44,761 nt of DNA from a virus. Shown here in pieces: positions 784 through 35,900 of this stretch. The translations under genes and the position numbers were made by a program. The notes below the pieces were generated by a model. It saw only the letters and a program-made list of their open reading frames with translations, had not been told where the DNA came from and ran no database searches. Numbering within the stretch: the first letter of the stretch is position 1; the number at the start of each line of letters is the position of its first letter. The stretch lies in the IMG/VR virus record IMGVR_UViG_3300045988_103633, positions 1-44,761 of that record; one strand, written 5' to 3'.

Positions 784-799
784 TGTTTCATGTGGAACA
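784..799. promoter_or_regulatory. Palindrome copy a (TGTTTCATGTGGAACA) of the dispersed TGTTNCA-YR-TGNAACA motif
   Basis: 7-2-7 inverted repeat. It ends 2 nt before the GGAGG Shine-Dalgarno and 17 nt before GTG 816. Confidence 0.8.
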
Positions 800-815
800 A
801 TCGGAGGTGAAAAAA

Positions 816-1220
816 GTGAAACGAGATAACAGACTAAGTTATAAAGTCGGATTTGTTTCCTTTTTTTATTGGCTATTTGTATATATCTATCCAACGGAAC
901 GCCTCATTTCCCCGGATGGGATTCCGTTGAATGGGATTGGTTTGATAATTGATAATTTTAGCGATGGTTTTGTTTCTCTTTTTGTCATGATGGTTGCATC
1001 CCTTTACTTGGTGGCCATCTATGCATCAAAAGAAAAACTAAGGATCGTTATGGCCGGCATTTTGTTTGGCGTATGGGTTACGTCAACAAGTGCGATGGTT
1101 TGGTGGGCTTTCATGCGTGGCCTGGTTTCGCCATCATTAGCAATCTACGCCGGATATTGTGTTTCAATTTTCATTGATATTCGGACGGGGGTTGATAATA
1201 AATGGATTGGCAAAAAATAG
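816..1220 (+). CDS. Membrane protein with about 4 predicted TM helices, first gene of the lysis region. Function unknown.
   Basis: The GTG at 816 is preceded by GGAGGTG (803-809) and is in frame with ORF-track 681..1220. Hydrophobic runs: VGFVSFFYWLFVYIY, GFVSLFVMMVASLYLVAIYA, IVMAGILFGVWVTSTSAMVWWAF, LAIYAGYCVSIFIDI. ATG 681 has no RBS. Confidence 0.6.
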   Translation: MKRDNRLSYKVGFVSFFYWLFVYIYPTERLISPDGIPLNGIGLIIDNFSDGFVSLFVMMVASLYLVAIYASKEKLRIVMAGILFGVWVTSTSAMVWWAFMRGLVSPSLAIYAGYCVSIFIDIRTGVDNKWIGKK

Positions 1221-1588
1221 TTTTGGCCATAATCGCAATGATTTCCGGATCATATGGGGTCATTACAGGTTTCATCAACTACAAAAAAGATGTTAACAAG
1301 GGAAGAAACCAACGTGATCAAATAGCGTGGGAAACGATGGAAAAACAGTACAGAAACCTTGAAAAAAGTTATGATGATCTATCGAGAAAAGTTTCACAGC
1401 TAGAAAAAAAGTTGGATGAATTCCGGGAGGAAAACACAGCGAAAGACAAAATCATTTTAGAAAAAGATCGAATCATAATGAAAAAAGATGGCGAAATCGA
1501 AGACTTGAAAGAAGAGGTTTCCGATCTTAAAAAGACAAATAAAGCGTTGAGAGTTAAAATGGCAGAGATGGGAGGTGTCAAAACGTGA
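1202..1588 (+). CDS. N-terminal TM anchor plus long coiled-coil protein (128 aa), lysis-region accessory protein
   Basis: Translation has IVLAIIAMISGSYGVITGFI followed by a heptad-rich, charged segment (KVSQLEKKLDEFREENTAKDK...). It overlaps both neighbouring genes, suggesting translational coupling. Confidence 0.65.
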   Translation: MDWQKIVLAIIAMISGSYGVITGFINYKKDVNKGRNQRDQIAWETMEKQYRNLEKSYDDLSRKVSQLEKKLDEFREENTAKDKIILEKDRIIMKKDGEIEDLKEEVSDLKKTNKALRVKMAEMGGVKT

Positions 1589-1830
1589 AAGATCAGATCA
1601 TGAAAATGTTTAATTTGTCGGATGTTGCTTATAACCGTTTGAAATGGACAGTAAGCATTGTTTTGCCGGCAATCATCACTTTTTTCGGAATTCTAGGTCA
1701 AACAATGGGTTGGGATTTCACTGATAAAGTGATCACGATTGGAACGGCTTTCGTTGCAATGTTAGGGATCATTTTGGGAATTTCAACAAACGAATACAAC
1801 AAAAACGAAGAAAACAAAAAAGATGAATAA
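1585..1830 (+). CDS. Holin, phage phi-LC3 holin family-like (Phage_holin_1)
   Basis: 81 aa. Contains AYNRLKWTVSIVLPAIITFFGILG and a second TM segment (IGTAFVAMLGIILGIS), then a charged C-terminus. Sits immediately upstream of the endolysin. GTG start is 6-7 nt after GGAGGTG. Confidence 0.8.
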   Translation: MKDQIMKMFNLSDVAYNRLKWTVSIVLPAIITFFGILGQTMGWDFTDKVITIGTAFVAMLGIILGISTNEYNKNEENKKDE

Positions 1831-1845
1831 GGGAGGAAAAAGAAA

Positions 1846-2847
1846 ATGGCAGGAGAAGTTTTTAGCAAATTGATTACAAGCGTGAATCCAAAAATCATGA
1901 ATGCCAGCAGTCGAAACGGCATGAAGATTGATCGGATCATCATCCATCACAATGCAACAACGAACAAAGATGTCGCAATGGACACATGGGTAAAAGGTGG
2001 ACCGGCAGGAACATCCGCACATTATGAATGCACACCAGATGAAATCATTGGTTGCGTAGGCGAACAATATGCAGCATGGCACGCAGGAGGAACAGGCGGA
2101 TCAGACATCCCTAGAATTTCAAACCCTAATCAACGATCGATTGGTATTGAAAACGTCAATTCAAGCGGTGCGCCTAATTGGTCAGTTGATCCACGTACAA
2201 TCAGAAATTGTGCGAAATTAGTTGCTGACATTTGTAAACGATACAATATTCCATTGGATCGAAAACACGTATTAGGACATAACGAAGTAACAGCGACAGC
2301 TTGTCCGGGTGGAATAAACGTTGATGAAGTTGTCCGATTGGCGAAAGAGTACGCAAAAGGTGCGAGCGATTCAAATGTTGCACAAGAACAAAAGCCAAGC
2401 AAACCAACAACAAAAACGCATGATCAAATCATCGCTGAAAGTAAACCGAAAAAAGTCGGCAGATATGTTGGCAAATTGGAAAAATTCAATGAGTTTAAGT
2501 TAGGGATTTTCCGTATTGCTGGTTGGTTAGTTCCTACGGAGGGAGCGCCAGCTTTAAATTATGGTTTTGTTTTTTGGAAAGAAGCAGGAACAGGAAAAGA
2601 AATTGGCCGTTGTCCGTCGAAAGGCATCGTAAGAAACGACGTCAACAAAGCATACGGATTGCCTAACGGTTTGAAATTCGGCCTTGATGGTACGCTAGAC
2701 ATCAAGAAATTTGCAGGCAAGAAAGTATATCCATGTTTGCGCAGAACGAACGATAAAGCAGGAAACAGCATTGCAGGCAAACCAAACGGCAATGGTTGGA
2801 TCGATATCGAGTTTCCGGAATACGTTTTGACAATTCCGAAAAGATAG
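1846..2847 (+). CDS. Endolysin: N-acetylmuramoyl-L-alanine amidase (Amidase_2/PGRP fold) with an uncharacterised C-terminal cell-wall-binding region
   Basis: N-terminal motifs IIIHHNAT, SAHY, AWHAG, SIGIEN, VLGHNEV..TACPG are typical of Amidase_2. A linker (QEQKPSKPTTK) is followed by about 140 aa with no motif I recognise. Confidence 0.85.
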   Translation: MAGEVFSKLITSVNPKIMNASSRNGMKIDRIIIHHNATTNKDVAMDTWVKGGPAGTSAHYECTPDEIIGCVGEQYAAWHAGGTGGSDIPRISNPNQRSIGIENVNSSGAPNWSVDPRTIRNCAKLVADICKRYNIPLDRKHVLGHNEVTATACPGGINVDEVVRLAKEYAKGASDSNVAQEQKPSKPTTKTHDQIIAESKPKKVGRYVGKLEKFNEFKLGIFRIAGWLVPTEGAPALNYGFVFWKEAGTGKEIGRCPSKGIVRNDVNKAYGLPNGLKFGLDGTLDIKKFAGKKVYPCLRRTNDKAGNSIAGKPNGNGWIDIEFPEYVLTIPKR

Positions 2848-2901
2848 TTTATTCTTTGTTTTGTTATAATAATTGGCATGTTACTTCCTAAGTGAAAAGT
2901 T

Positions 2902-2930
2902 CGGTCAGAAATGGCCGTTCTTTTTTTATT
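2902..2930 (+). terminator. Weak candidate intrinsic terminator after the lysis cassette
   Basis: Short stem cggtc/ggccg (one G-U pair) followed by ttctttttttatttattttt. The stem is weak. Confidence 0.4.
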
Positions 2931-2950
2931 TATTTTTATGTAATAAATTG

Positions 2951-2979
2951 TTGCAAATTGTAACATATCATGATATACT
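2951..2979 (+). promoter_or_regulatory. Early promoter P1: TTGCAA-17 nt-TATACT with an extended -10 TG
   Basis: ttgcaa (2951-2956), 17-nt spacer ending in tga, then tatact (2974-2979). Same layout as P2 and P3. Confidence 0.7.
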
Positions 2980-3008
2980 TAATTCATAAAGTTAAGGAGG
3001 AAAAACAA

Positions 3009-3245
3009 ATGAAAAAAGTAGAAGTTAACGGATATTTCAATTTATACAAATGCAAAGATGGGTTTTGGGATGGTGCTTTCGTTTGGTCAAACACTGATTA
3101 TTCGGCTCTATACACATTTTTAGTTGATGTGGATAGCATGGAAAAATTGGGTTACGACTACGAAGGATATAGACTTGTAGAGGTCAACGGCATCCGATGC
3201 ATTCCAATGACATTTTCAAATGCAGAAGTCGAAAGAGTTTGCTAA
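3009..3245 (+). CDS. Hypothetical small early protein (78 aa)
   Basis: ATG is 8 nt after AAGGAGG. First gene after P1. In frame with ORF-track 2970..3245. Confidence 0.7.
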   Translation: MKKVEVNGYFNLYKCKDGFWDGAFVWSNTDYSALYTFLVDVDSMEKLGYDYEGYRLVEVNGIRCIPMTFSNAEVERVC

Positions 3246-3254
3246 AAAATAAAT

Positions 3255-3274
3255 GCCGGGTGTAAAAACCCGGC
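3255..3274. terminator. GC-rich stem-loop (GCCGGGT-gtaaaa-ACCCGGC). The U-run is on the minus-strand side only. Possible attenuator or RNA stabiliser.
   Basis: Perfect 7-bp stem. The plus strand lacks a T-run after it. The minus strand reads hairpin + ATTTATTTTTT. Confidence 0.4.
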
Positions 3275-3291
3275 TCTCTAGGAGGTAAAAA

Positions 3292-3507
3292 ATGAAACCT
3301 GATGTAACTTTGGAAAAGTACAAAGAAATTATTTCGGGGTGTGATCATCAGGAATTGCACATCGAAGCAAAAGGATTTTTGAATGGTGGAATAAACGAAC
3401 ACAACGAGGCATATGCGATCGCTCTATATGGGCGGTTATGTATGTTAGGCAGCTGGATTTCGGCATTATTAGGGGAGGAAATAGAGAAATGGAAAGAAAA
3501 CAAGTAA
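3292..3507 (+). CDS. Hypothetical small early protein (71 aa)
   Basis: ATG is 8 nt after AGGAGG. ORF track entry. Confidence 0.7.
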   Translation: MKPDVTLEKYKEIISGCDHQELHIEAKGFLNGGINEHNEAYAIALYGRLCMLGSWISALLGEEIEKWKENK

Positions 3508-3692
3508 ACACAGCAAGAATTCGTGTACAAATGAAAATGAGAGGGGAAACAGATGAAACGATGGCGAAGCGTTTAAATGTTTCACGTGTAACATACAACA
3601 AATTGATCAATAACAAATATGTTTCCGGAAACGCCGATGCTTATATCGAGACCATCGAAAAAATTCTTGGAATGGATCAAAATATCAGATAA
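3489..3692 (+). CDS. Small HTH DNA-binding protein (Cro/XRE-like, 67 aa)
   Basis: ATG 3489 follows GGGGAGG. The segment ETMAKRLNVSRVTYNKLINN reads as helix-turn-helix. In frame with ORF-track 3438..3692. Confidence 0.7.
   Translation: MERKQVNTARIRVQMKMRGETDETMAKRLNVSRVTYNKLINNKYVSGNADAYIETIEKILGMDQNIR
3578..3593. promoter_or_regulatory. Palindrome copy g (TGTTTCACGTGTAACA), inside the HTH gene
   Basis: Exact 16-mer, also present at 34447..34462. Confidence 0.7.
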
Positions 3693-3709
3693 AAAAAGGA
3701 GAATGAAAG

Positions 3710-4714
3710 ATGATAGATTTTGGAAAAGTAAACGAAAACATTTTGCACACACAGGATGGCAAAGAAACAAAAGAATACACTTACAGCGCAACTGATGGCG
3801 AACGTGGGATGTCAGATGAAGAAGTTTTGATGTTTCAACTACACAAAGAAAACGATGAACTGAAAAAAATGATCGAGGAATCGAATCAAGTGATCGATCA
3901 AGCAGGCATGATAAAATCGCTTGCAAAGATGGCGCAAAAGATCGCAAAAGTGATCGAGCAAACAAAAACGATTGAAAAATCCGGTTGGAACAGTTTTCAC
4001 AAATACGAATATGCAACAGAATCAGATGTGAAAAAAGGCGTTAGAAACGTAATGGCCGAAAATAAACTGATTTTGATGAACAACGTCAAAAAGTACGAAG
4101 AAAACATCGTTCAGACGAAAAACGGCGGAAAAGAATCACAAGTGAAATTACACATCGAATATACTTTGATCGATACAGAAACAGGATTCTCAAAAACATT
4201 CACAAAGATCGGCGTGGGTCAAGATGCAGGCGATAAAGCTTTCTACAAAGCCGAAACAGGCGCTTTGAAATACGCTTTGACAACATTGTTCTTGCTTCCT
4301 AGTGGCGATGGCGATCCGGAAATCAATAGCCAGGAAAACGATGGCACAGATGCCAAAAGCAAACCGCAAGAAAAAGACTTACTGAAAATGAAAACAACAG
4401 CCGAATTCATTTTGAAGGCAACAAAATTAGAACAGCAAAAAACAATAGTCGGATTTTTGCAAGACGTAGCCAACAAAAACAATATTTTAGATGAAAAAGG
4501 CAATGCGAAAAATCCGGATGATTTAACGGTGGCAGACGTGGCCAAAATGAACAATTATCTTTCTAAGTGGAAATTGAAGGTCATTGATGATCTGAAAACA
4601 CAGCAAAAACAAAACGAACAAATGGATAGAGAGAGAATGCAACAGCAAACAGAACGACAACATCAACAAGCAAAACAACAAAAAGATGCAAAAAGCATTT
4701 TCGGGGGTAGATAA
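3710..4714 (+). CDS. erf: ERF-family single-strand annealing recombinase
   Basis: SGWNSFHKYEYATESDVKKGVRNVMAENKLIL ... GQDAGDKAFYKAETGALKYAL matches the conserved ERF core. The C-terminal tail is Q/K-rich and low-complexity. Confidence 0.75.
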   Translation: MIDFGKVNENILHTQDGKETKEYTYSATDGERGMSDEEVLMFQLHKENDELKKMIEESNQVIDQAGMIKSLAKMAQKIAKVIEQTKTIEKSGWNSFHKYEYATESDVKKGVRNVMAENKLILMNNVKKYEENIVQTKNGGKESQVKLHIEYTLIDTETGFSKTFTKIGVGQDAGDKAFYKAETGALKYALTTLFLLPSGDGDPEINSQENDGTDAKSKPQEKDLLKMKTTAEFILKATKLEQQKTIVGFLQDVANKNNILDEKGNAKNPDDLTVADVAKMNNYLSKWKLKVIDDLKTQQKQNEQMDRERMQQQTERQHQQAKQQKDAKSIFGGR

Positions 4715-4716
4715 TA

Positions 4717-5763
4717 ATGGCAAACGAAATTCAAAAACAAGATAACAACATTGCAGACGTTTTGAAAATGGAGATCACGCCGGCCGTGATCTCTTTCCCA
4801 GGGGAAAAAGAATTGCGTGCTTATTTAGATGCAGAAATGAAAAAATATAAAAGCCTGGTAATCACTGATGAAAATATCAGCGATGCTAAAAAAGCGAAAA
4901 CGTATTTAAACAAAATGAAAAAGGCGTTAAACGATGCCAGAATTCAAAAAGAACGTGAAGTGATGCAACCTTTTAACGAATTCAAAACATCAATCGAAGC
5001 GTTGATCAAACAGCTTGATCAAACCATCGATCCAATTGATCAAAAAATCAAAGAAGCGGATATATTGGCAAGAGAGCAGAAGAAAGAGAAAATCAAAAAA
5101 GAGATCATGGAAATAATAGATGGCCACGGTATCACAGAAGAAGAAGCAGGTTTTTTCGAGATCGAACCGAAGTGGTTAAACAAAACGGCAAAGATGAAAG
5201 ATATTAGAGAATCACTTGTCATGCAAGCAAGATCATATTTGCAACAAAAGAAGGAATACGAAGACGGCGTAAAACTTATCCACAACCTATCCAAAACGCT
5301 TGACGTGACAGAAGACAATTACATCGAACTTTTCAAAGACGGCATGAGCATTGATGATGTTTTAGCTTTTATGAAAAGAGAGAAAGAAAATCGAGATCAA
5401 TTGCGAGAAAAAGAAGAGAAGAAGCGCCAGGAAGAAGAGCTAAGAAAATCCCAGGAAGAACAAACAAAACAAGAAGAACAGCCCGATCCAGATTTCGATT
5501 ATTTGGGCGGTATTGATCCGGAAGAGTACAAAGAGAAAAAAACAGATACACAATTCGACTTTGCTAGTTTGAAAGATTTCGATTTTGAAACAGGAGAAGT
5601 CTTTGAGAATGATTTGCCGGAAATAGAAAGTGACGTTCAAACGGTCACTTTGAAACTAAGCGGAACATATGAAAATTTAGAGCGTTTGAATAACGTTATG
5701 CAAGATTTAGGAATTTCATCCGAATTGATCGATCTTGCAAATGATTATGTACGTATCAGATAA
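4717..5763 (+). CDS. DUF1351-family phage protein (recombination-module partner of ERF/RecT in Firmicutes phages)
   Basis: N-terminal ITPAVISFPGEKELRAYLDAEMKKYKSLVITDENISDAKKAKTYLNKMKKALNDARI resembles DUF1351. Position is directly after erf. Confidence 0.6.
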   Translation: MANEIQKQDNNIADVLKMEITPAVISFPGEKELRAYLDAEMKKYKSLVITDENISDAKKAKTYLNKMKKALNDARIQKEREVMQPFNEFKTSIEALIKQLDQTIDPIDQKIKEADILAREQKKEKIKKEIMEIIDGHGITEEEAGFFEIEPKWLNKTAKMKDIRESLVMQARSYLQQKKEYEDGVKLIHNLSKTLDVTEDNYIELFKDGMSIDDVLAFMKREKENRDQLREKEEKKRQEEELRKSQEEQTKQEEQPDPDFDYLGGIDPEEYKEKKTDTQFDFASLKDFDFETGEVFENDLPEIESDVQTVTLKLSGTYENLERLNNVMQDLGISSELIDLANDYVRIR

Positions 5764-5786
5764 ACCATTCAAATTTGGAACGTTTT

Positions 5787-5819
5787 CCGGCCGATTTGGC
5801 GTTTTAAACGTCCGGCCGG
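5787..5819. other. GC-only stem-loop (CCGGCCG ... CGGCCGG) in the gap between the DUF1351 and HNH genes
   Basis: 7-bp G/C stem with a 19-nt loop and no U-run. Confidence 0.3.
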
Positions 5820-5872
5820 CGAATTATTCATGAAAAGAGTAAAACGGCTTAAAAACGAAAAGAGGTGGCATT

Positions 5873-6550: not shown

Positions 6551-6915
6551 TGGAAAAGAGAATGGAAGCATTAGTGTTGATCGATTTTGCCAGGTACAAA
6601 AAGGATTTATACAAGACGAAAAAGAGACTTGAAGCATTTGCAGATTTTTTGTTTAGTGTACACGATGAATATATGCAATTTTCGGCAGTTAATTATCTAG
6701 GGAAAACGATAGCAAGAGAATATTTCCCGGAAGAATTGAAAGACGATTTGCATGCCATCGTAAAAAATGCGATCGAAGGAATCAACAAAGAGATCGATCA
6801 AGCGGAAATGATTATTCAGAATTATCGAGCAGACGAAGCAAGCGAAGTTTTGAATGCTTATAACAAAGCTAGAATCAGAAGTGAAAAAATAAAAAGAAAA
6901 GGCGGTTTGGTGTGA
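6550..6915 (+). CDS. Hypothetical protein (121 aa)
   Basis: TGATG stop/start overlap with the upstream gene. ORF track 6547..6915. Confidence 0.65.
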   Translation: MEKRMEALVLIDFARYKKDLYKTKKRLEAFADFLFSVHDEYMQFSAVNYLGKTIAREYFPEELKDDLHAIVKNAIEGINKEIDQAEMIIQNYRADEASEVLNAYNKARIRSEKIKRKGGLV

Positions 6916-7283: not shown

Positions 7284-7338
7284 TTGTGCAATCAGTTATA
7301 CAATGATACAATGATCTTGTGAGCAACTGATTGCACAA
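7284..7338 (+). promoter_or_regulatory. Early promoter P2 (TTGTGC-17 nt-TACAAT, extended -10), bracketed by a perfect 14-bp inverted repeat
   Basis: -35 at 7284-7289, -10 at 7307-7312. TTGTGCAATCAGTT (7284-7297) is the exact reverse complement of AACTGATTGCACAA (7325-7338). Confidence 0.75.
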
Positions 7339-7354
7339 AAGGAGGGGGATGAAC

Positions 7355-7540
7355 ATGGCAAACAAAGTGGATCGTATTGAGTTAGAAAAAATGCGACTAG
7401 ACAGCGGAAAAGAGTGGAAAGAGATTGCCGAAGAAGTTGGCATGACAAAGTATTATCTTTCAAGATTGATCAATGGTGGAACAGGTCAAGAAGCCATTGA
7501 TAAATGGTTGCCAAAAATCAAAAACGCTTTGAAGCGATAA
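7355..7540 (+). CDS. Small HTH DNA-binding protein (61 aa)
   Basis: ATG is 9 nt after GGAGG. The segment KEIAEEVGMTKYYLSRLINGG reads as helix-turn-helix. In frame with ORF-track 7331..7540. Confidence 0.7.
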   Translation: MANKVDRIELEKMRLDSGKEWKEIAEEVGMTKYYLSRLINGGTGQEAIDKWLPKIKNALKR

Positions 7541-8409: not shown

Positions 8410-9291
8410 GTGGAAAACATGAGAGATTCAATGCAAATGCTTATGAGCAAGTTCATGATCAAAACGGATGAAATGTGCGAAATCCACGGAATTGCGAAAG
8501 TAATTGCCAGAAATCAAAACGACATGAAGCCTTTTTGCGTTGAATGTCGCAGGTTGGAAATCGAACAGCAAAACAAAGAAAGAGCGGATAAAGCCTTGCA
8601 AGCAGATATCAAGCGAAAAACGTATGATGCACTGAAATATGATTCGATTTGCTCGGATGATGATGTTTGGAAAGCATCTTTCGACACGTTCCGGACGGAT
8701 GGCAAAGATGCAGAAGCTTTGAAGATCGCAAAAGACAAAGCCAGACACATTGCCGGAGAGTACCTGGCGAAACGAATTGAAGTTGACGAAAAAGGGAAAA
8801 AGAAGATCGTTAGAAACGAATTTAATACGATTTTAACAGGCCCAGCCGGATCGGGAAAAAGCCATTTGGCCATGTCGATTCTTAAAGCCGTGAACGAACA
8901 TTCCGATCCCTGGCAAAGTTGCATTTTCGTTTCAACAGTCGATTTGCTGATGCTTATCCGTGACAGTTTCGGCAAACCGGATTCGAAATTTTCAGAAGCA
9001 AACATGATCAATCTGTTAACAAGTTGCGATTTGCTCGTATTGGATGATCTAGGAACAGAATCAAGCTTGGTAAGAAGTGCGAATGAATCATCGGATTTTG
9101 TGCAAAAAGTTTTGTTTAGCATCTTATCGAGGAAAAGGACAATCATCACGACAAATCTTTCATCGGGTCAATTGATGGATATGTACAATCCTAAAATCAT
9201 TTCTCGAATCAACAAGGGAGTAGGATTTGACGGAAAGCACGTGATCAAGATGCCGGATGATGTCGAAGACAAACGTATTTTATCGTTTTAG
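8410..9291 (+). CDS. DnaC/IstB-like AAA+ helicase loader with an N-terminal Cys-pair zinc motif
   Basis: Walker A GPAGSGKSHL, Walker B LLVLDDLGTE, sensor TTNLS. N-terminal CEIHG...CVEC. Confidence 0.8.
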   Translation: MENMRDSMQMLMSKFMIKTDEMCEIHGIAKVIARNQNDMKPFCVECRRLEIEQQNKERADKALQADIKRKTYDALKYDSICSDDDVWKASFDTFRTDGKDAEALKIAKDKARHIAGEYLAKRIEVDEKGKKKIVRNEFNTILTGPAGSGKSHLAMSILKAVNEHSDPWQSCIFVSTVDLLMLIRDSFGKPDSKFSEANMINLLTSCDLLVLDDLGTESSLVRSANESSDFVQKVLFSILSRKRTIITTNLSSGQLMDMYNPKIISRINKGVGFDGKHVIKMPDDVEDKRILSF

Positions 9292-9300
9292 GCGAGAAGA

Positions 9301-9336
9301 CTCCCACCTCAAGGAACGAAAGTGAATAGGTGGGAG
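9301..9336 (+). promoter_or_regulatory. Left-end (LE) subterminal hairpin of the IS
   Basis: CTCCCACC-tcaaggaacgaaagtgaata-GGTGGGAG. The loop shares GAAcGAAAGTG with the RE hairpin. Confidence 0.65.
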
Positions 9337-9362
9337 ATGAATCGCCTTTGAACAAGGGATGA

Positions 9363-9515
9363 CTACTTACCATCTCTATTGTCCAACTGTTCAAGTGCAT
9401 ATTGAATAAGATAAATAATTGTTTGGGTACGAGTTGTAAAACCTTTCTTTTCTTTGAACTCGTCAATTCGTTTCAATAATTCTTTTGGATAACGCATATT
9501 CAAAACTTGCGACAT
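9363..9515 (-). CDS. Ribbon-helix-helix (CopG/Arc/MetJ-like) protein, 50 aa. The only convincing minus-strand gene. Absent from the ORF track (under 60 aa).
   Basis: My translation is MSQVLNMRYPKELLKRIDEFKEKKGFTTRTQTIIYLIQYALEQLDNRDGK, which has a beta-strand/helix/turn/helix pattern. A GGAGG lies 6 nt upstream of the ATG (9515..9513). Confidence 0.65.
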   Translation of the reverse strand: MSQVLNMRYPKELLKRIDEFKEKKGFTTRTQTIIYLIQYALEQLDNRDGK

Positions 9516-9601
9516 TTTTTAACCTCCATATTGTGTATTAAAATAATACATGATATAATCAATGTATATTATAATAATACACAAATAAGGAGGTGAAAGC
9601 A
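9516..9601. promoter_or_regulatory. Divergent promoter/operator region between the RHH gene and tnpB
   Basis: TGATATAAT (9551-9559) faces tnpB, and a TATAAT is present on the minus strand. An imperfect inverted repeat (ttgtgtattaaaataataca / tgtatattataataatacacaa) brackets them. Confidence 0.5.
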
Positions 9602-10726
9602 ATGTTAGTGAATAAAGCCTATAAATTTCGTATCTATCCAAGCAAAGAACAAGAAATACTGATTGCTAAAACAATCGGTTGTTCTCGTTTTGTATTCAAT
9701 CATTTCCTCGCAAAATGGAACGATACTTATAAGGCAACAGGAAAAGGTTTGACTTACAATTCGTGTTCTTCTCAATTAACCCAATTAAAGAAAGAATTAG
9801 TTTGGCTAAAAGAAGTAGATAGTATTGCGATTCAATCGTCATTAAAAAATCTTGCTGATGCTTATTCTCGCTTCTTTAAGAAGCAAAACGATACACCTCG
9901 CTTCAAGTCCAAAAAGAATAAGGTTCAATCTTATACAACAAAACACACGAATGGAAACATTGCCATTGAAGGCAACAAAATCAAATTGCCTAAACTTGGA
10001 TGGATTCGTTTTGCAAAGAGTCGTGAAGTAGAAGGTCGTATTCTCAATGCAACAATTAGACGAAATCCAAGTGGCAAATATTTTGTATCCATTCTTGTAG
10101 AAACAGAAGTACAACCGTTAGAAAAAACAGGTTCTTCTGTGGGCATAGATGTCGGCTTGAAAGATTTTGCTATTATTTCAGATGGAACTGTCTACTCTAA
10201 TCCTAAGTTTTTTCGAAGATTAGAAGAAAAGTTGGCAAAAGAACAACGGATTCTTTCAAGACGTAAAAAAGGTGGTTCAAATTGGGATAAACAACGGGTT
10301 AAGGTTGCCAGAATCCATGAACGCATTGTAAATGCCCGAACAGATTACTTGCAAAAAATCTCTACTGAAATCATCAAAAACCACGATGTAATCGGTATTG
10401 AATATTTGAAAATAAGTAATATGCTAAAGAATCATAACCTTGCAAAAGCGATCAGCGAAGTATCTTGGTATCAATTCAGAACGATGCTTGAATACAAAGC
10501 GAAATGGTACGGAAAGCAAGTTGTCACAGTAGCAAAAAACTTTCCATCCAGTCAACTTTGTTCGTGTTGCGGATACAAAAACAAAGACGTTAAGAATCTA
10601 AATCTTCGTGAATGGGATTGCCCATCTTGTGGAACACATCACGACAGAGATATTAACGCAAGTTTGAATCTTAAAAATGAAGCCATAAGGCTTCTAACCG
10701 TAGGAACGACGGGGATAGCCTACTAA
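9602..10726 (+). CDS. tnpB: TnpB (OrfB_IS605) RNA-guided nuclease, 374 aa, with RuvC and zinc-ribbon motifs apparently intact
   Basis: N-terminal [13 protein letters not shown]. Ruv[12 protein letters not shown], RuvC-II IGIEYL, zinc ribbon CSCCG...CPSCG, Ruv[15 protein letters not shown] 9602 is 8 nt after AAGGAGG (the track starts at GTG 9593). Confidence 0.9.
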
Positions 10727-10800
10727 ATATCCGCTCGATAGAGCGAAGTTCGTAGGAATCTCCCAATTCTAAGCGAAGCGAAAGTGGGAGTAGTTCAATC
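10640..10800 (+). ncRNA. Putative omega/reRNA scaffold overlapping the tnpB 3' end and the RE. Extent is a guess.
   Basis: In characterised TnpB systems the guide RNA derives from this region. Local stems: gtagg...cctac (10700-10723), cgctc-gata-gagcg (10731-10745) and the RE hairpin. Confidence 0.4.
10760..10790 (+). promoter_or_regulatory. Right-end (RE) subterminal hairpin of the IS
   Basis: CTCCCA-attctaagcgaagcgaaag-TGGGAG. Same stem sequence and strand as the LE hairpin. Confidence 0.65.
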
Positions 10801-10803: not shown

Positions 10804-10819
10804 TGTTTCACATGAAACA
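10804..10819. promoter_or_regulatory. Palindrome copy b (TGTTTCACATGAAACA), 14 nt after the RE hairpin
   Basis: Identical 16-mer to copy e. It ends 28 nt before ATG 10848. Confidence 0.8.
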
Positions 10820-13183: not shown

Positions 13184-13390
13184 TTGATATTTATTAGCTA
13201 TTTGATTCTTGTTTTGTTGGCCAGCGGTTTGGGAATTTTTACGATCAGCACATTTTTCCGTCAGGCATTCAATCACGATCAAGAAATCGATAATTTTAAC
13301 GCAATATTTTGGTTTGGCATCGCAATCGTTTTGGCCGTTGTCATATTGGCTTGCCTAGTATTCATAGGATTGGAGTTGAAACAGATATGA
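13184..13390 (+). CDS. Small 2-TM membrane protein (68 aa, TTG start)
   Basis: TTG is 7 nt after GGAGG. Hydrophobic helices ISYLILVLLASGLGIFTI and IFWFGIAIVLAVVILACLVFIG. Confidence 0.5.
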   Translation: MIFISYLILVLLASGLGIFTISTFFRQAFNHDQEIDNFNAIFWFGIAIVLAVVILACLVFIGLELKQI

Positions 13391-13710
13391 AAAAGCACGT
13401 GTTGGAAATCGTAGTCAAAAAGAAAAATGTGATTTTAAGGAAAACAGTCAAGCATGCAGGATCAGAACAGATCGCAAGAGATGTGTTTCACGTGGAACAT
13501 GATCGATTAAGAAAAATGCAAGTCGAACAAGACGTGAAAGAAATCCAAAAAGCGCAACGGCGTGGATTTTATGATGTTTATCTAAGATATATCAAGATGA
13601 ACCAAAAAACGAACGGCGTACAGGTGTCAGAAAGCTTTATGGAAGAACATTTCACTTTTGCCAACGATCAAAAATTCGGGAGGGTTGATGATGTTAGCAA
13701 AGCAAAATGA
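13387..13710 (+). CDS. Hypothetical protein (107 aa)
   Basis: ATGA overlap with the upstream ORF. In frame with ORF-track 13309..13710. Confidence 0.6.
   Translation: MKKHVLEIVVKKKNVILRKTVKHAGSEQIARDVFHVEHDRLRKMQVEQDVKEIQKAQRRGFYDVYLRYIKMNQKTNGVQVSESFMEEHFTFANDQKFGRVDDVSKAK
13484..13499. promoter_or_regulatory. Palindrome copy f (TGTTTCACGTGGAACA), inside a CDS
   Basis: Matches TGTTNCA-YR-TGNAACA. Confidence 0.65.
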
Positions 13711-16926: not shown

Positions 16927-16942
16927 TGTTTCACATGGAACA
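16927..16942. promoter_or_regulatory. Palindrome copy c (TGTTTCACATGGAACA), covering the -35 region of the promoter at 16949
   Basis: It ends 6 nt before TATAAT 16949-16954. Confidence 0.8.
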
Positions 16943-16948: not shown

Positions 16949-16954
16949 TATAAT
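16949..16954 (+). promoter_or_regulatory. Candidate -10 box (gtgTATAAT), first of two identical boxes in the late leader
   Basis: GTGTATAAT occurs here and again at 17148-17156. Confidence 0.5.
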
Positions 16955-16961
16955 GAACGAA

Positions 16962-17137
16962 GGTGCCACGGCATCGATCATTTGGTTTCTTCTTTCATGA
17001 TTCAAGTCCGATTTTTGTTGGAGAAGTCGGCAACGATGTGGATTGATTGGACTACTCACAATTTTCCATTTCTTATCCTATCAAATTCGGCCGTTGGTAG
17101 TCGGGATGAAGGTTTGCTTAACAGCAAGCCTTTTTTT
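16962..17137 (+). ncRNA. Candidate ~175-nt untranslated leader/regulatory RNA ending at an intrinsic terminator
   Basis: It is bounded by the promoter-like box at 16949 and the terminator at 17111-17137. There is no RBS-preceded ORF. The track ORF 16946..17155 starts inside the -10 box. Confidence 0.35.
17111..17137 (+). terminator. Intrinsic terminator inside the late leader
   Basis: Stem ggtttgct-taac-agcaagcc (one G-U pair) followed by T7. Confidence 0.7.
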
Positions 17138-17150
17138 GTTGGTTTCCGTG

Positions 17151-17156
17151 TATAAT
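17151..17156 (+). promoter_or_regulatory. Second gtgTATAAT box, 32 nt before the ParB-like gene
   Basis: ccgtgtataatagacg. Duplicate of the 16946-16954 box. Confidence 0.5.
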
Positions 17157-17188
17157 AGACGTATCAAATGCAAGAAAGGAGAAAGGAC

Positions 17189-17809
17189 ATGAAAAACAAT
17201 GATGAAATGATCGGATCAAAGGAAATAAAGATCGTTCCGATTGATCTCGTGATCCCTTACGAAGAAAATCCACGCTTGAATGATAAGGCGGTGGAGTACG
17301 TGAAGAATTCAATTAAACAATTCAAATTTGCACAGCCGATCGCAGTCGATAAAGATGGCGTGATCATTGCAGGGCATACGAGATATAGAGCATCGAAAGA
17401 ATTAGGCCTGGAAAGTGTGCCGGTGGTCGTATTGGACTATTTAAACGATGAAGAAGTAAAGGCCTATCGATTGGCAGATAATAAAGTGGCCGAATTTGCT
17501 GATTGGGATTTTGAAAAGCTGAATTTGGAACTAGACAGCTTATTAGATACAGAAATCAGCATGGAAGATTTTGGTTTTGCATTTAATACCGAATTGGAGT
17601 TCGAAGACGAAGAAGAGCAGGAAGCATCGGAAATGATACAGATCAAATTTGCATTAGCACCAGAGCAAGCCGAGATCATGGAAGGCGTGTTCCAGTTATT
17701 AGAACCGAACTCGAAGACATATGGCAACGAAGATCAATTGGGAAACAAGTTCTTTTCATTAGCAGAACAGTGGGCTAAGATGAAGCAGGAAGCGAGGGGA
17801 TCAGATTGA
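17189..17809 (+). CDS. ParB-like nuclease-domain protein (ParBc), first gene of the packaging/late block
   Basis: IKIVPIDLVIPYEENPR...QPIAVDKDGVIIAGHTRYRASKELGLESVPVVVL matches the ParB box order (GxxRxRA). ATG 17189 is 6 nt after AAAGGAGA. Confidence 0.75.
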   Translation: MKNNDEMIGSKEIKIVPIDLVIPYEENPRLNDKAVEYVKNSIKQFKFAQPIAVDKDGVIIAGHTRYRASKELGLESVPVVVLDYLNDEEVKAYRLADNKVAEFADWDFEKLNLELDSLLDTEISMEDFGFAFNTELEFEDEEEQEASEMIQIKFALAPEQAEIMEGVFQLLEPNSKTYGNEDQLGNKFFSLAEQWAKMKQEARGSD

Positions 17810-22784: not shown

Positions 22785-22867
22785 ACCATGCGGAAACATG
22801 GCGTGTTTAACAAAAACCATTCTTTCGACAAGGGGCGATCTCATCTTTTGATGGGGTTGCCTTTTTT
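22785..22867 (+). ncRNA. Candidate ~80-nt small RNA (extended -10 TGtTAAAAT at 22770-22778 to the terminator at 22831-22867)
   Basis: A promoter-like box lies immediately after terminator 1. There is an internal hairpin ccatg-cggaaa-catgg, a second terminator, and no RBS or credible ORF. Confidence 0.3.
22831..22867 (+). terminator. Second intrinsic terminator of the island (long imperfect stem plus T6)
   Basis: aggggcgatctcatc-tttt-gatggggttgcc followed by ttttttatt. Confidence 0.55.
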
Positions 22868-22891: not shown

Positions 22892-22900
22892 TGATATAAT
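22892..22900 (+). promoter_or_regulatory. Extended -10 promoter TGATATAAT ahead of the head-assembly genes
   Basis: ctgatataat. Palindrome copy d starts 6 nt downstream. Confidence 0.6.
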
Positions 22901-22905: not shown

Positions 22906-22921
22906 TGTTACATGTGAAACA
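22906..22921. promoter_or_regulatory. Palindrome copy d (TGTTACATGTGAAACA) between the promoter and the RBS
   Basis: It ends 2 nt before AGGAGGG and about 18 nt before GTG 22940. Confidence 0.8.
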
Positions 22922-22939
22922 TAAGGAGGGAAAGAAATT

Positions 22940-23287
22940 GTGCTAAGAAGAGAAAGAGGAATCAGAATGCCAGTGCCGGACAAAGACAACATATGTCCGC
23001 CAGTTTGCAAAAATATGTTTGGTTTTACGATACCAGCAGATCGCAGACCACCACAACCACCAAAACCAGTGAAAACACAAATAAAGATCGATTTTGAAGG
23101 CCAGATGTTTGAATGCGATGTCATTGACGGAGTGGCCAAAATACCAGATGAAATCGTGCAGGAAATGAAAAAAACAAACGAAAAGCACGAAAAAGAAACA
23201 GAAATAACGATCAAAACCGGATATGGCAAGCAAAACGAAGATATTTCTGCTAAAATTCTAGTGAAGACGAAAGGAGGTGGAGAATAA
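22940..23287 (+). CDS. Hypothetical protein (106-115 aa) preceding the protease. Proline-rich N-terminal part.
   Basis: GTG is 9 nt after GGAGGG (ATG 22967 is the alternative). ORF track entry. Confidence 0.6.
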   Translation: MLRRERGIRMPVPDKDNICPPVCKNMFGFTIPADRRPPQPPKPVKTQIKIDFEGQMFECDVIDGVAKIPDEIVQEMKKTNEKHEKETEITIKTGYGKQNEDISAKILVKTKGGGE

Positions 23288-28899: not shown

Positions 28900-28908
28900 T
28901 GATATAAT
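28900..28908 (+). promoter_or_regulatory. Extended -10 promoter-like box TGATATAAT after the major tail gene
   Basis: tttttgatataatgg, followed by a short hairpin (tggcga-tattat-tcgcca) and palindrome copy e. Confidence 0.5.
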
Positions 28909-28935
28909 GGTGGTGGCGATATTATTCGCCATCAC

Positions 28936-28951
28936 TGTTTCACATGAAACA
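28936..28951. promoter_or_regulatory. Palindrome copy e (TGTTTCACATGAAACA) upstream of the chaperone RBS
   Basis: It ends 6 nt before AGGAGGG and 20 nt before ATG 28972. Confidence 0.8.
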
Positions 28952-28971
28952 CCAATCAGGAGGGAAATCAA

Positions 28972-29885: not shown

Positions 29886-29895
29886 TTTTTTGGAA

Positions 29896-29926: not shown

Positions 29927-29949
29927 ATTAAGAAAGGGGAGAAAATCAG

Positions 29950-32900
29950 ATGGCAGACGGAAAAAGAATTGGTGGTGCGTTTTTAGATTTTCAAGTGGAC
30001 TATTCACAACTAAAAACATTTCTAAGCACAATGAACAGCCTATCAGACCAGACGAACAAACAAATATCCGGCATCGGGTCAGTGATCGAATCAACGATCC
30101 AGAAAACGAAGAACTTGACGAAGGAAACGGCGAGTGGTGCGAATCAGCAAAAGAATGCCATGAGTAACATCATGACACAATATGCAAACGCATCGAAAAA
30201 GGTCGAAGAAATGACCAACAGCATTTCAAAAACAAAGACAACATCATCAAACGCCACAAAATCGATTCTAAGCGATTCTAAGAGTATAGCAGGAGAATCA
30301 TCCAAAACAGCTTTTAAAATGTCGCAATCGACATCACAGGCGTTCGATTCGATGAAAAAAGACAGTCGTTCATTGAATCAAACACTTGTGGCCGGAATGA
30401 AAGCCAACGTGCAGGAGTTTGGGCAAAGTTTCAAAAATCTAGGTTCGACATTCAGTGGAATCGCATCATCGATTATTAACACGTTCAAAAAGATTCCGTC
30501 CGGGATCGCATCGATTCCGAAAACGATCGCAACACAGATGAAAAATCTAGCCGGATCGATTACATCGGGATTCGCACGTGCGAAAGATTCGGCAATCTCA
30601 CAGATAAAGAAAATACCGGATGCAGTACGATCGGCAGGTAATTCAATCAAGACAGGATTTGCAACGGCGTTCAATACAGTTGTTTCCACAGCTACAAACG
30701 TAGTCAACAAGACGAACAGAGCAATCCAGACATTGCCACAAACGATCTCACGTGCAGGCAGTGCCATCAAGAATGGATTTTCAAATGGGATCAAAGCAAT
30801 TCCACAGATTGCAAGCAACGTGGCCAAGACAGCAGGCAACGCCTTTTCATCCATAGGAACAACCGTGAAGAATGTCGCATCGGCATCCGGAAGTGCAATG
30901 AAATCATTCCTATCCAGTGGGATGCAAAACGTTCTTTCAAAAGCACGTTCGGTTTTCCCTGGTGTCAAGAAACAGATTCAAGACGGCGTGGACGAACCGG
31001 CCAAAACAGCATCGCTTTCATTAGGTAAAATCGCAGGCGCTATCGGTGTGATGAAAGTCGCATCTAAAGCCTTTTCGATGATTGGATCATCGATGGAAGG
31101 TGCGATCAATCGGATCGATACACTAGCAAATGCCGATCGTGTGTTCGAAAACATGGGATTCAAGGCAGAAGAAACACGAAAGATGATGCAGGCGCTAAAC
31201 AAATCAATAACCGGGCTACCTACGGCGTTGAATGATGCCGTTTCCGGCGTTCAGTTGATAGCATCATCAACAGGGGATATAGGCAAATCACAAAAGATTT
31301 TCGAAGCGTTGAATAATGGGATTCTAGGGTTCGGCGGATCGGCTGACATGGTAAACAATGCCATCGTTCAGTTATCACAATCATTCTCAAATGGGAAAGT
31401 CGATGCCGAAACATGGAACTCGATGATCAATAGTGGATTAGGACCAGCTTTGAACGCTATTGCGAAACAGATGGGCAAGACGGCCGGAGAGTTAAAAACA
31501 GGGCTATCAGAGGGTACTATATCTGTCAAAGATTTCCAAGATCGTTTGATTGAATTAAACGAAAAAGGTGGCGGAGGACTGAAATCCTTGCAACAAATCG
31601 CACAGGATGCCACAAAAGGGATCAAGACATCCATTGCCAACTTTAAAACGTCAGTGACACGTGGTGTCGCAGAGATCATCAAGGCGTTTGACAAGTTTAT
31701 CACAGCAGTAACAGGCAAAGGCGTTGCGGATTGGATCGGAACATTTGCATCCGGATTCGAAGCAGGATTGAAGAAAATTGCATCCGGATTCGAAGCAGTC
31801 ACGCCATTAGCTAAGAAGCTTTATGATACGTTGAAACCATTTGCACCAGTGATCGGTGGAGTGGTGGCCGGTTTGCTCGCAATGGGCGGAATCAACTCAG
31901 CAATCTTTGCCATTAGCAAACTATCGGGAGTATTCGCAATGTTTACGAAGGCATTGTGGGCAAATCCAATCGGGTTAGTTGTCGGCCTTATCGTAACATT
32001 AGGCGTTGCATTCTATAATGCTTATAATAAATCAGAAACGTTCCGCAAGAGTGTTGATAACTTGCTAAAACCGCTGAAAAAAGTCGGAGAAATGGCACAG
32101 TTAGCAGGTAAGATGATCCAATTGTATTTATTCGGAGAATATACACAGGATAAAGGGGAACAATTTGCTAAAACACGCAAAGCGTTAGAAGAAATGTTGC
32201 CAAAACAAGTGGTCGATGCATTTGTAAATCAAATTCAACGTGTGAGTGATGCAAAAGAAAAATTGACGACTATCATCAAAGCCATATCGTTATCATTCCA
32301 AGATTTAAAACCGGAAGAATATGGCGAAAAAATGAAATCTTTGCATGATTATCTTGGCCAATTCATCCCACAAGAACAATTGAATGCAATTTGGGTCAGA
32401 ATCGCCAATTTTAACAATGCGATAAACCAGTTCAAAGATATATTTAGTATTTTCTACGATGCTTTAACAGGTAATTTTAAAGATTTTAATCAATTGTATG
32501 AGGAATACGGAGATATTTTCGATATTAGTCAACTGTTTGATATAGTATATATTTCTCAAATATTGAATCAAGTAGGCGATACGTTTAGAACAGCGTTTAC
32601 ACAAATTAAACAAGCCATTTTGACAGGTATCACAGAGGGCGATTTTACGCAACTCTATGCATTGATCCAACAAATAGCGCCAACGATTATCGGGATGCTA
32701 TTGGGCGGTATTCCACAGATTGCCATCGCAGGCGGACGGCTATTGCTTTCGATTGCCGATGGTATGGGATTGAATATTCCACAGTTGATCACGAAGCTAA
32801 CAACTGAAATTTTGCCTAGCATCGTTAACACATTGGTAACCGGAGCAATTACATTTGTGAATGTCGGCATCCAATGGATCAACAACATCATTGCCGGCAT

Positions 32901-35900
32901 TAATCAATCATTGCCAACATTATTGCCAATCGCATCGGGTATCATTTCGAACCTGGTAACTTTTATCATGCAGGCATTGCCAGTAATTGTGCAAACAGGA
33001 TGGACGATCCTTTCAAACTTGATGGATGGGATCATGAAGGCGTTGCCTAACTTGATCAATATCGCCGTTCAATTGGTAGTGTGGCTTGCACAGACCATCG
33101 CACAAAACTTACCGATAATTGTCAATAAAGGGATGGATATCGTTTTAAACTTGTTACAAGGAATTCTCAAGAAGTTCCCTGAATGGTGGGAAATGGCAGT
33201 CAAGTTGATCATTCAATTTGGTACAAAATTAGCTGAAAACTTCCCATCGATCGTGAAAAAAGGTTGGGAATTGCTGACGAAGCTTGTGCAAGGGATTGGC
33301 GAAAGAATTCCGGCGTTGCTTGCAATGGTCGTTCGGTTTATGGGCGTTATGCTTGGTAAGATATTGGAGTATTTGCCAGACTTAATAATTCTAGGTGTGA
33401 AATTGATCGTTGCTTTGATCAAAGGTTTGTGGGAGTTCGGCAAAGGATTGGGCGGATTCATCAGCGGATTTTGGGATTCACTGAAAAAAGGTTTTTCTCA
33501 AATTGATTGGGGCGAAATCGGTCGAAACGTAATCGATGGGATTGTCAAAGGGTTTACAAAAGGATTCAAGAAGGCAAAAGATGCCGTGACCGATCTTGCA
33601 GGAAACATCGGCGGATGGTTCAAAGAAAAAATGGGTATCAAGTCGCCGTCACGAGTTATGGCCAAGATTTCTCAATGGGTGCCGGCAGGGGTAGCGGTCG
33701 GAGTGGAAAAAGGTGCGCCGTTAGTTGATAAAGCGATGGATGCATTAACAGCCACAATGACGAAAACTGTACAAAGCGCCGATCCAACCGTTAAAAATGA
33801 AATCAAAGTCGAATCGAAACCGACATCGATGCCAGTAGATACAAATCAGATCACAAACGATGGTTCGTTGAATGCATCGGCCTTTAATACCGGATTGCAA
33901 ACGATCGTTCCACAAGTTGCAAACACGATCGGCACAATGGCAAATACAGTGGATACAGCCTTGACAAATCAAGTGCCAAAAATGCTTTCAAGCGGCCGTG
34001 AATGGATAACAAACATGAACAACGGAATTATTCAGGCAGTGCCACAAGTTACGAACACAATCGGCACAATGGCGAATTCAGTTGATACAGTTTTGACGAA
34101 TCAAGTGCCAGGAATGCTTTCAAGTGGTCGTGAATGGATAACAAACATGAAAAATGGAATTATTCAGACAGTGCCACAGCTTACAGCAAGCGTTTCGAAC
34201 ATGGTCAATCAAACAAACAGCAGGATCGATGCGAACGATGCTACAATGACCAGAAACGGAACTGAATGGGGAAGAAACATTCTATCCGGGTTTAATTCGA
34301 TTTATCCACAATTTATCAATCGGGTTGGGCAATTCACAAATGATACTGTTAACCGCTTGAGATCGATCAATAATACTGTTTTATCCATCGGCAGACAATA
34401 TATGCAGTTGCTTCTTAACGGAATCAATCAATTGTATGGCACAGTTGTTTCACGTGTAACAGCGTTGGGAAATCAGATGGTTTCGTCCTTAAATTCAAAA
34501 CGTGGCGGATTCTACAATGCCGGAACGTATTTGATGAATGGACTAATATCCGGAATAAACGCCGTCAAAGGTTCGCTTAATACGACAATGAACAGCGTTG
34601 CAAATGCAATGGTCGGAGGAATTGGAAAAGGTGTGAACGGCGTTGCCAGTGGTGTAAACTACATCATGGGTCAAGTTGAATCGAAAAAACGTATTGGAAA
34701 TTGGAAAATACCGAAATACGCCAGTGGTACAGATGGGCATCCAGAAGATGGATTGGCAATGGTCAATGACCAACCGGGGTCGAATTATCATGAGATCGTT
34801 CAACGTCCGAATGGAGAAACGTTTATCCCTAAAGCAAGAAATGCCGTGTTATGGTTAGAAAAAGGCACAAAGGTTGTCAAAGCATCCATGACGAAGCAAA
34901 TCCTCAAGGCTAGAAAAAACGCCATTCCACGATATAAAAATGGTGTCGGGGATATCGATGTGGCAGATTTCATCGATGATGAAGATGCATTGAAACGATT
35001 TTTCCAAAGTAAAGTGAATTATTCGAAAATCAAGTCACCGTGGAACGGCATGACAAGAACAGCCGTTGACATGATGGGCCATGCATCAAATGACATGGTA
35101 CAAACGGCATTGAGTGATTTCTTTAGTCACGGCAATTTTGATGGATCATTGTTTGCAGGCGGTGGAGCGTTCAACAACGTTTACACGTATCTTGTAGACG
35201 TAGCGCAAAAACTCATGACGAAGTTCCCTGGTTTAATTCCTACATCCGGTTACCGTCCGGGCGATGCTTATTATCACGGAAAACACCAGGCAATCGATTT
35301 GGCTTATCCTGGAGTTTCAAACGATCCAAGATATACCACGATCGCAAATTACGCTTTTGAGAAATTCAAGAATCAAATTGCTTACGTCATTACAAATGGC
35401 CGAGTACGTGACCGCATGGGGCTATCCGGTACAGGCGCATCCGGCAAATGGGTAACATGGCCAGCCCACGATCACTTTGACCATATCCATCTAAACGGAG
35501 CGTTTGGCGGTGGCCAGTTGCAAAGCGGTGGTGGCGGTGGCGTTGAAAAATGGCGTGGCCTAGCTATCAAAGCATTAAGAATGGAAGGACAATATTCGCC
35601 GGCCAACCTTAATGCGCTATTGAATCAAATGCGAACAGAATCGAACGGCGATCCGAATGCTATCAACTTATGGGACCCGAACGCCCTTAAAGGAACGCCA
35701 TCAAAAGGGTTGATGCAGGTTATCGATCCAACGTTCCGAGCTTATGCACGTCCGCCATACAATAAAAACATCTTTGATCCTATTTCGAACATACTGGCAT
35801 CAATCAGATACACGTTGAGAACGTACGGCAGTTTGATTGCCGGATGGCGTGGTGTAGGCTATGAAAACGGCGGAATGGTCACAAAAGATGGGCTTTATAG

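Follow-up and report, generated by a model that had tools for sequence, protein, structure and literature searches.

A 44,761-nucleotide stretch of viral DNA (IMG/VR record IMGVR_UViG_3300045988_103633, positions 1 to 44,761; "the window" means this whole stretch) carries eight dispersed copies of a 16-bp palindrome that, judged by its sequence, is a chromosomal-type parS, the loading sequence of ParB/Spo0J. The window represents an Enterococcus faecium siphophage and shares 96.7% identity with Enterococcus phage fHoEfm07, which was isolated from wastewater on E. faecium. We consider it probable, by analogy with phage phi29, that the phage recruits the ParB of its host to its own DNA through these sites and thereby becomes linked to the host segregation and condensation machinery. 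Host parS on a lytic phage is of a known kind, from phi29; what is new is its presence in an unrelated phage family and in a non-sporulating, clinically important host, together with a larger number of sites, conservation of their positions across the clade, and promoter-adjacent copies. Our literature searches retrieved no report of parS on phages beyond the phi29 family or those with par genes of their own.

Eight parS sites in the window

A pattern scan with TGTTNCANNTGNAACA returned exactly eight matches in the window, starting at positions 784, 3578, 10804, 13484, 16927, 22906, 28936, and 34446, while 100 dinucleotide-preserving shuffles of the window contained none (mean, 0.00). The view of the first-pass annotation that eight copies exceed chance is thus confirmed, although its last copy (34447 to 34462) was placed one base too high and its count of 14 invariant positions was too generous. 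Across the eight copies, 12 positions never change, the two central ones are Y/R (CG, CA, or TG), and positions 5 and 12 are free to vary. Loosening the pattern to two mismatches added just six weak matches where about 3.5 were expected, and the motif family is therefore sharply bounded. The sequences around the eight copies are mutually unrelated, in agreement with the earlier description of a discrete site that is neither a miniature inverted-repeat transposable element nor a duplicated block.

The half-site had been said not to match the cre, Cheo/LexA, Rex, or CRP boxes, but this overlooked the canonical parS, whose consensus in Bacillus subtilis is TGTTNCACGTGAAACA; the freely variable positions 5 and 12 of our motif include the N of that consensus. 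All eight copies are one or two mismatches away from TGTTTCACGTGAAACA, the published parS consensus, whereas shuffles contained on average 0.57 sequences with up to three mismatches to it. A published genome scan for parS allowed at most two mismatches, and all eight sites, measured against the 16-bp palindrome tGTTNCACGTGAAACa, fall within this cut-off. Structural work has used TGTTTCAC-GTGAAACA as an idealized parS and TATTTCCC-GGGAAATA as the site of the paralogue Noc (Jalal et al.). The bases that discriminate parS from the Noc site TATTTCCCGGGAAATA are G instead of A at position 2 and A instead of C at position 7 (Jalal et al.). Both, with their mirror positions (TG at positions 10 and 11 and CA at the end), are kept in all eight copies, which rules out a Noc-binding site.

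The sites are listed below with their counterparts in related loci (L numbers; position of the counterpart in each locus). RBS stands for ribosome-binding site and HTH for helix-turn-helix.

784..799: parS-like site TGTTTCATGTGGAACA, two mismatches; between the tail-fibre stop (653) and a probable GTG start at 816, 3 nt before the RBS GGAGGTG (803-809); syntenic copies at L001 27345, L270 8270, L271 296, L272 4454
3578..3593: parS-like site TGTTTCACGTGTAACA, one mismatch, intact core; within the XRE-type HTH gene 3438..3692; counterparts at L001 30382, L270 10798, L271 3290, L272 7448, which differ only at the outermost position 1 or 16
10804..10819: parS-like site TGTTTCACATGAAACA, one mismatch; intergenic, in relatives directly after the stop codon of the DnaC/IstB-like helicase loader, ending 16 nt upstream of the weaker RBS GGTGG; counterparts at L001 36091, L122 1349, L123 804, L271 8902
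13484..13499: parS-like site TGTTTCACGTGGAACA, one mismatch, intact core; within the small open reading frame (ORF) 13309..13710 (a gene of about 107 amino acids [aa]); counterparts at L001 39226, L122 4932, L123 3907
16927..16942: parS-like site TGTTTCACATGGAACA, two mismatches; at about -34 to -19 relative to a TATAAT box, upstream of a leader and of the parB_N and terminase genes; counterparts at L001 43524 and L122 9739, missing at this place in L123
22906..22921: parS-like site TGTTACATGTGAAACA, two mismatches; 5 nt past an extended -10 box, about +1 to +16 of the predicted transcript, ending 3 nt before the RBS GGAGGG (22925-22930) of gene 22940..23287; between head-morphogenesis and scaffold-region genes, in relatives too; counterparts at L001 5105, L122 15753, L123 15715, L127 3848, L128 3820
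28936..28951: parS-like site TGTTTCACATGAAACA, one mismatch; in a 5' leader between the major tail and chaperone genes, 27 nt past TGATATAAT and 7 nt before the RBS GGAGGG (28959-28964); counterparts at L001 11135, L127 9993, L128 9993, L129 3925
34446..34461: parS-like site TGTTTCACGTGTAACA, one mismatch, intact core; within the tape-measure gene 29950..36282; counterparts at L001 16513, L127 15519, L128 15366, L129 9298

The CACGTG core is intact at 3578, 13484, and 34446 and reads CACATG or CATGTG at the other five sites. The core is therefore intact in all three intragenic sites and altered in all five intergenic ones (Fisher p = 0.018, calculated by hand). Relatives mostly follow the same split, the exceptions being the sites at L122 15753, L122 9165, and L123 9130. 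This split may reflect a tuning of ParB affinity near promoters.

Conservation and layout of the sites

Homologues of three window proteins led us to ten further loci from related phages, with protein identities of 63 to 83%. For each window site, a counterpart occupies the equivalent place in these relatives: after the loader stop codon, in the gene of about 107 aa, before the parB_N leader, between the head-morphogenesis and scaffold-region genes, in the gap between the major tail and chaperone genes, in the tape-measure gene, before the lysis-side membrane protein, and in the HTH gene. In site-anchored alignments, 14 to 16 of the 16 positions of the motif were invariant (12 of 16 for the site after the loader), compared to only 9 to 63% of the flanking columns. 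At 22906, 14 of 16 positions were invariant against 9% of the flank columns, and both intragenic sites aligned in this way were fully invariant (16/16 against 48% of flank columns at 13484 and against 63% at 34446). In the HTH gene, the changes at position 1 or 16 found in relatives are synonymous by our reading of the codons, which fits the weak outer positions of the consensus. Judged by these alignments, the sites are under selection.

Across the clade, the density amounts to one site per 3.6 to 7.2 kb. No parS was found in 369 kb of unrelated terminase-linked loci, in the temperate Enterococcus phage phiEf11, or in Bacillus phage B83, which is the nearest cultured terminase relative after fHoEfm07 and encodes its own ParM/ParG. 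Scanning public viral contigs with TGTTNCACGTGNAACA and TGTTTCACATGAAACA gave at least 120 matches each, mostly one per contig among the matches listed; by a rough estimate, this is near chance expectation for a collection of that size and uninformative as to how common multi-parS phages are.

As an alternative, the first-pass annotation proposed an RNA hairpin with a role in processing or in translational control, which would act on the downstream gene. Four sites do lie 3 to 16 nt upstream of an RBS, and stable folds are predicted at 784 (-9.9 kcal/mol) and 16927 (-6.9). However, what is conserved is the sequence and not the pairing: positions 5 and 12 show no covariation, U-U or A-A breaks three of the eight window stems, and C-A occurs in relatives. 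Predicted stabilities are uneven (-0.5 to -9.9 kcal/mol), four sites fold no better than shuffles, and the clearest leader site, 22906, reaches just -0.5 kcal/mol. Furthermore, the site at 16927 lies upstream of its promoter and three sites lie inside long ORFs. The sites are thus almost certainly not RNA hairpins. A search for known RNA families gave no Rfam match in the window.

Non-coding DNA represents 5.4% of the window and contains five of the eight sites (P ~2e-5 for at least five of eight), the remaining three being located in the HTH gene, the ORF of about 107 aa, and the tape-measure gene, the same division between gaps and coding sequences as in the first-pass annotation. The spacing of the sites is also more even than that of points placed at random on a circle (probability of a minimal gap at least as large as observed, 0.010; 0.004 for fHoEfm07, in which an insertion element of the window is absent). 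Neighboring sites are 2.7 to 6 kb apart, apart from one 11-kb gap. Both ends of the window (1-653 and 39304-44761) belong to one very long tail-fibre or structural gene, and this 11-kb stretch is the sole long parS-free region. Since the start and the end fall within the same gene, the window represents a complete phage genome in circularly permuted form.

Sites in such number could also act as a sponge: hundreds of replicating phage genomes with eight sites each would draw ParB away from the host origin, together with the loading of SMC and the control of ParA, and so disturb host chromosome segregation, replication control, or division to the advantage of the phage. Many dispersed sites per genome, no ParA found in the phage, and a lytic cycle that does not obviously require partition would all suit such a function, and ParB pools are limited. 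Neither conserved positions nor even spacing nor intergenic placement would be required for it, however, and a tandem cluster would suffice. Such a benefit is not known from any phage. We hold a sponge to be very unlikely.

The binder and its possible roles

All window genes are on one strand. A Pfam analysis of the early proteins identified a recombination module (Erf, DUF1351, and an HNH-type nuclease), an HTH_36/DnaD-like initiator, an IstB/DnaC-like loader, RecU, a Dp-1 holin, an amidase, two small XRE-type HTH proteins (3438..3692 and 7331..7540), a TnpB insertion element, and one ParB N-terminal-domain protein. No integrase, ParA, or full-length ParB was found among these proteins or in the gene tables of relatives, and no repressor module was seen in the window or in those tables. 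The relatives were seen solely as free contigs of 44.1 to 45.6 kb. A large-terminase search of bacterial contigs (one genome per species) gave only distant matches (at most 40% identity) and no Enterococcus prophage, a major-capsid-protein search of viral contigs gave no relatives, and in a cultured-phage collection fHoEfm07 was the sole close relative. On this genomic evidence, the phage is non-integrating and of a lytic type.

The ParB N-terminal-domain protein is the only ParB-like protein found in the phage.

17168..17809, + strand: gene for a ParB N-terminal (CTPase-fold) domain protein of 213 aa, with an acidic linker and a two-helix tail but no parS-binding HTH

Fold matches to its structure model (pLDDT 82) are confined to the N-domains of ParB, Noc, and KorB, and tblastn with a Spo0J sequence matched solely the N-domain stretch of this gene. 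Many phages have a homologue ahead of their terminase genes, frequently next to Mom-like or DUF4417 genes; none of the four such phages that we examined carries parS. Lacking the HTH and having homologues in parS-free phages, this protein is probably not the binder, which is therefore most likely the ParB of the host. The parB_N family may instead assist a DNA-modifying or packaging enzyme and have no part in partition. The gene (L001 ~43760-44400 in one relative) lies just upstream of the small terminase gene and is unannotated in the fHoEfm07 record.

A host ParB should be available. ParABS homologues and parS have been reported in all 12 Oligo-MM12 genomes, Enterococcus faecalis included, and in Streptococcus pneumoniae, which belongs to the same order as Enterococcus, ParB binds parS and reaches more than 5 kb from it.

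Alternatively, the sites could be operators for a regulator of the phage itself, such as one of the two XRE-type HTH proteins, that happens to recognize the parS sequence or has evolved to share it. One site is indeed within the gene of one of these proteins, and some sites are at promoters. Against this, the half-site equals parS at every conserved position, including those that discriminate parS from Noc sites, which makes a chance match unlikely, and the unrelated phi29 has the same motif, there linked to host Spo0J. The eight sites are symmetric, genome-wide, and identical to the site of a host protein, and neither Pfam on the early proteins nor structure matches nor tblastn revealed a ParB-type HTH in the phage. 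Moreover, Cro/CI-type operators usually cluster at their own promoters and are not spread evenly through structural genes. A phage-encoded regulator is therefore distinctly unlikely.

For recruitment of host ParB, we infer binding, spreading, and benefit as follows. After entry, host ParB dimers would nucleate on the phage parS sites. CTP binding triggered by parS would then close ParB into clamps that slide over several kilobases, as established for the ParB family. At a spacing of 2.7 to 6 kb, with a single gap of 11 kb, the sites would thus turn most of the 45-kb genome into a ParB partition complex. By analogy with phi29, this complex would join the host ParB-SMC(-ParA) machinery and follow the host origins, so that unintegrated phage DNA could be inherited by both daughter cells when lysis is delayed (carrier state or pseudolysogeny). 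Such carriage would be the non-sporulating counterpart of the entrapment of phi29 in spores. More speculatively, ParB at 16927, 22906, and 28936 might damp late transcription until replication titrates it, and gating of some late promoters by ParB is possible.

Four observations weigh against this explanation. First, the CACGTG core differs by one base in five of the eight sites; in Pseudomonas aeruginosa, an intact core is important for ParB affinity, and core changes lower it. Second, segregation does not need the strong bias toward intergenic and promoter-adjacent positions, which hints at another or an additional role. Third, Enterococcus does not sporulate, and the benefit demonstrated for phi29 cannot apply as such. 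Finally, the site at 16927 is missing in L123 and relatives carry extra sites, indicating that no single site position is essential.

The second of these observations leads to the elements that surround three of the intergenic sites.

16949..16954, + strand: TATAAT hexamer, 6 nt downstream of the parS at 16927, at the head of a conserved leader
22830..22865, + strand: intrinsic-terminator-like hairpin (16 pairs and a T-run), closing the unit upstream of the promoter and the parS at 22906
22892..22900, + strand: extended -10 box TGATATAAT with TGCACA 18 nt upstream; predicted promoter with its start on the parS at 22906
28900..28908, + strand: extended -10 box TGATATAAT; predicted promoter 27 nt upstream of the parS at 28936

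An extended -10 box had been proposed upstream of 784, 22906, and 28936; it is present at the latter two, while 784 is preceded by just a TATAGT-like hexamer with no TG extension. The site at 16927 had been placed on the -35 position of the TATAAT box; it spans about -34 to -19 and ends 6 nt before the hexamer.

Host ParB could thus act mainly as a transcriptional gate or timer, occluding the promoters at 16949 and 22892 and blocking the leader of 28900, so that late operons would stay low until replicated sites titrate a limited pool of ParB, with segregation irrelevant. The positions of the three sites relative to these elements would suit such a gate, and the architecture of promoter and site is maintained in relatives despite diverged flanks. 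The intergenic bias and the weakening of the core in exactly the intergenic sites point in the same direction. ParB represses genes near parS in S. pneumoniae and reportedly also in P. aeruginosa. Yet S. pneumoniae ParB is not a general regulator of transcription, and a constitutive promoter preceded by parS was unaffected there. In the phage, three conserved sites are deep in genes and distant from promoters, and the link with promoters is not one-to-one, since two of the four intergenic TGNTATAAT boxes outside the insertion element (2862 and 11611) have no parS. The adjacency may also be incidental, because so compact a genome leaves scant room for a 16-bp palindrome outside promoter and RBS regions. 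Taken together, a gate without segregation appears rather unlikely. Of the genome-wide operator set proposed in the first-pass annotation, the selected site for a dimeric DNA-binding protein stands, a host protein having been among the options named, but control of a temporal switch appears doubtful: only two or three of the eight sites touch a promoter core and three are deep inside genes.

Tentatively, both functions could be combined, the captured host centromere sequence serving as a hitch to segregation and condensin and as a brake on late promoters that senses copy number. If so, the intragenic sites with an intact core and the promoter sites with a weakened core would correspond to the two jobs, and a lytic phage of a non-sporulating gut pathogen would have a heritable, non-integrated carrier state.

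The closest precedent for recruitment of host ParB is phi29. Five parS sites are reported for phi29, along with a contribution of Spo0J to the transfer of the phage DNA into the prespore (PMC2731898, citing earlier work). Our scan of phi29 gave four copies of TGTTTCACGTGGAACA, the very 16-mer found at 13484 in the window, and one copy with three mismatches, or about one site per 4 to 5 kb. In both phages, the copies are dispersed (about one per 4 to 6 kb) and occur within genes as well as right after stop codons; both are of a lytic type, the annotated phi29 genome having no ParA or ParB and the window phage no ParA and no full-length ParB that we could find. However, phi29, a protein-primed podovirus of 19 kb, infects a spore former, and its demonstrated benefit is prespore entry, whereas the window represents a 45-kb siphovirus of a non-sporulating coccus. 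In addition, no phi29 copy is at an annotated promoter, compared to two or three in the window phage, and most window copies, unlike those of phi29, have a core mismatch.

The sites share their consensus, the tolerance at position 5, and the presence of some intragenic copies with the chromosomal ParB-parS systems of Firmicutes (B. subtilis Spo0J and S. pneumoniae ParB). Those sites are clustered around oriC and serve the chromosome, however, while the window sites are on a virus and genome-wide, and their ParB would be borrowed. Phage genomes bearing centromere sites for a ParB-family protein are also known from P1 (ParABS) and N15 (SopAB). The centromere sites of N15 are dispersed through its genome. 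They number four and are separate inverted repeats instead of one array. Unlike the window phage, which encodes neither ParA nor full-length ParB that we could find and uses a host sequence, P1 and N15 are stable plasmid prophages with their own ParA and ParB and a site sequence of their own.

A model for gating is KorB of plasmid RK2, a ParB-family CTP clamp that acts as a global repressor from about a dozen dispersed palindromic OB operators. As in RK2, palindromic sites of the ParB-family type are scattered over a mobile genome and some are near promoters; but KorB is a plasmid protein with an HTH of its own and a binding site that is not parS, and no such protein was found in the window phage, 17168..17809 being an N-domain with a two-helix tail. 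The stoperators of cluster A mycobacteriophages, bound by the repressor of the temperate phage itself (gp71 in L5), are asymmetric 13-mers oriented with transcription. They too are short sites scattered over a phage genome, numbering in the tens and lying mostly in short intergenic gaps, whereas the window sites are symmetric and match the site of a host protein.

Should the phage indeed ride on host ParB, this would bear on how lytic phages persist. Lytic phage genomes recur in assemblies of purified bacterial isolates, for which the authors of that work favor a carrier-like persistence by a mechanism not known to them. Host-type centromere sites on a lytic phage would offer a concrete, mutable handle on such persistence. 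E. faecium is clinically relevant and, as we gather, fHoEfm07-like phages are isolated with therapy in mind; a phage that rides the segregation system of its host may persist instead of clearing it. With the phi29 observation extended to an unrelated phage and a non-sporulating host, borrowing of host ParB may be a more general phage strategy, and annotation pipelines could flag phage parS by a simple motif scan.

Elements adjoining the sites

The site at 784 is intergenic provided that the following gene starts at the GTG at 816. The fHoEfm07 annotation starts this gene (681-1220, fHoEfm07_00022) at the equivalent of the ATG at 681, which would make the site intragenic and is probably too far upstream. 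We favor the GTG at 816, since its RBS GGAGGTG, 6 nt upstream, is kept in relatives and the gene of one relative was called from there.

Between the TGATATAAT promoter at 28900 and the parS at 28936 lies a short hairpin (28909-28935, GGTGGCGA...TCGCCATCAC), whose pairing seems by eye to be kept with a different sequence in L127 and L128.

Downstream of the site at 16927 and its TATAAT box (16949-16954), a non-coding stretch of about 170 nt (16955-17140; L001 43550-43740, L122 9765-9950, L123 9790-9950) includes an intrinsic terminator (17108-17133) and is followed by a second TATAAT (17151-17156) and the start of parB_N. Its sequence hardly varies among relatives that share only about 63% identity in the neighboring proteins. 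No Rfam family matches the stretch, and shuffles fold about as stably as it does (z = -1.2). Possible roles are those of a small RNA, a regulated leader, or a packaging signal.

In the window, a TnpB insertion element of the IS200/IS605 family (9284-10798) sits between the helicase-loader gene and the parS at 10804. Its sole gene is tnpB (9593..10726), which encodes OrfB_IS605, Cas12f1-like TNB, and HTH domains, and the element has a TGATATAAT of its own at 9551. The insertion point, ...CGTATTTTAT^TCTAA, falls on the stop codon of the helicase loader, and fHoEfm07 lacks the element. In IS200/IS605 elements, the flank of the right end supplies the guide of the TnpB RNA, and here this flank consists of TCTAA followed by the parS at 10804.

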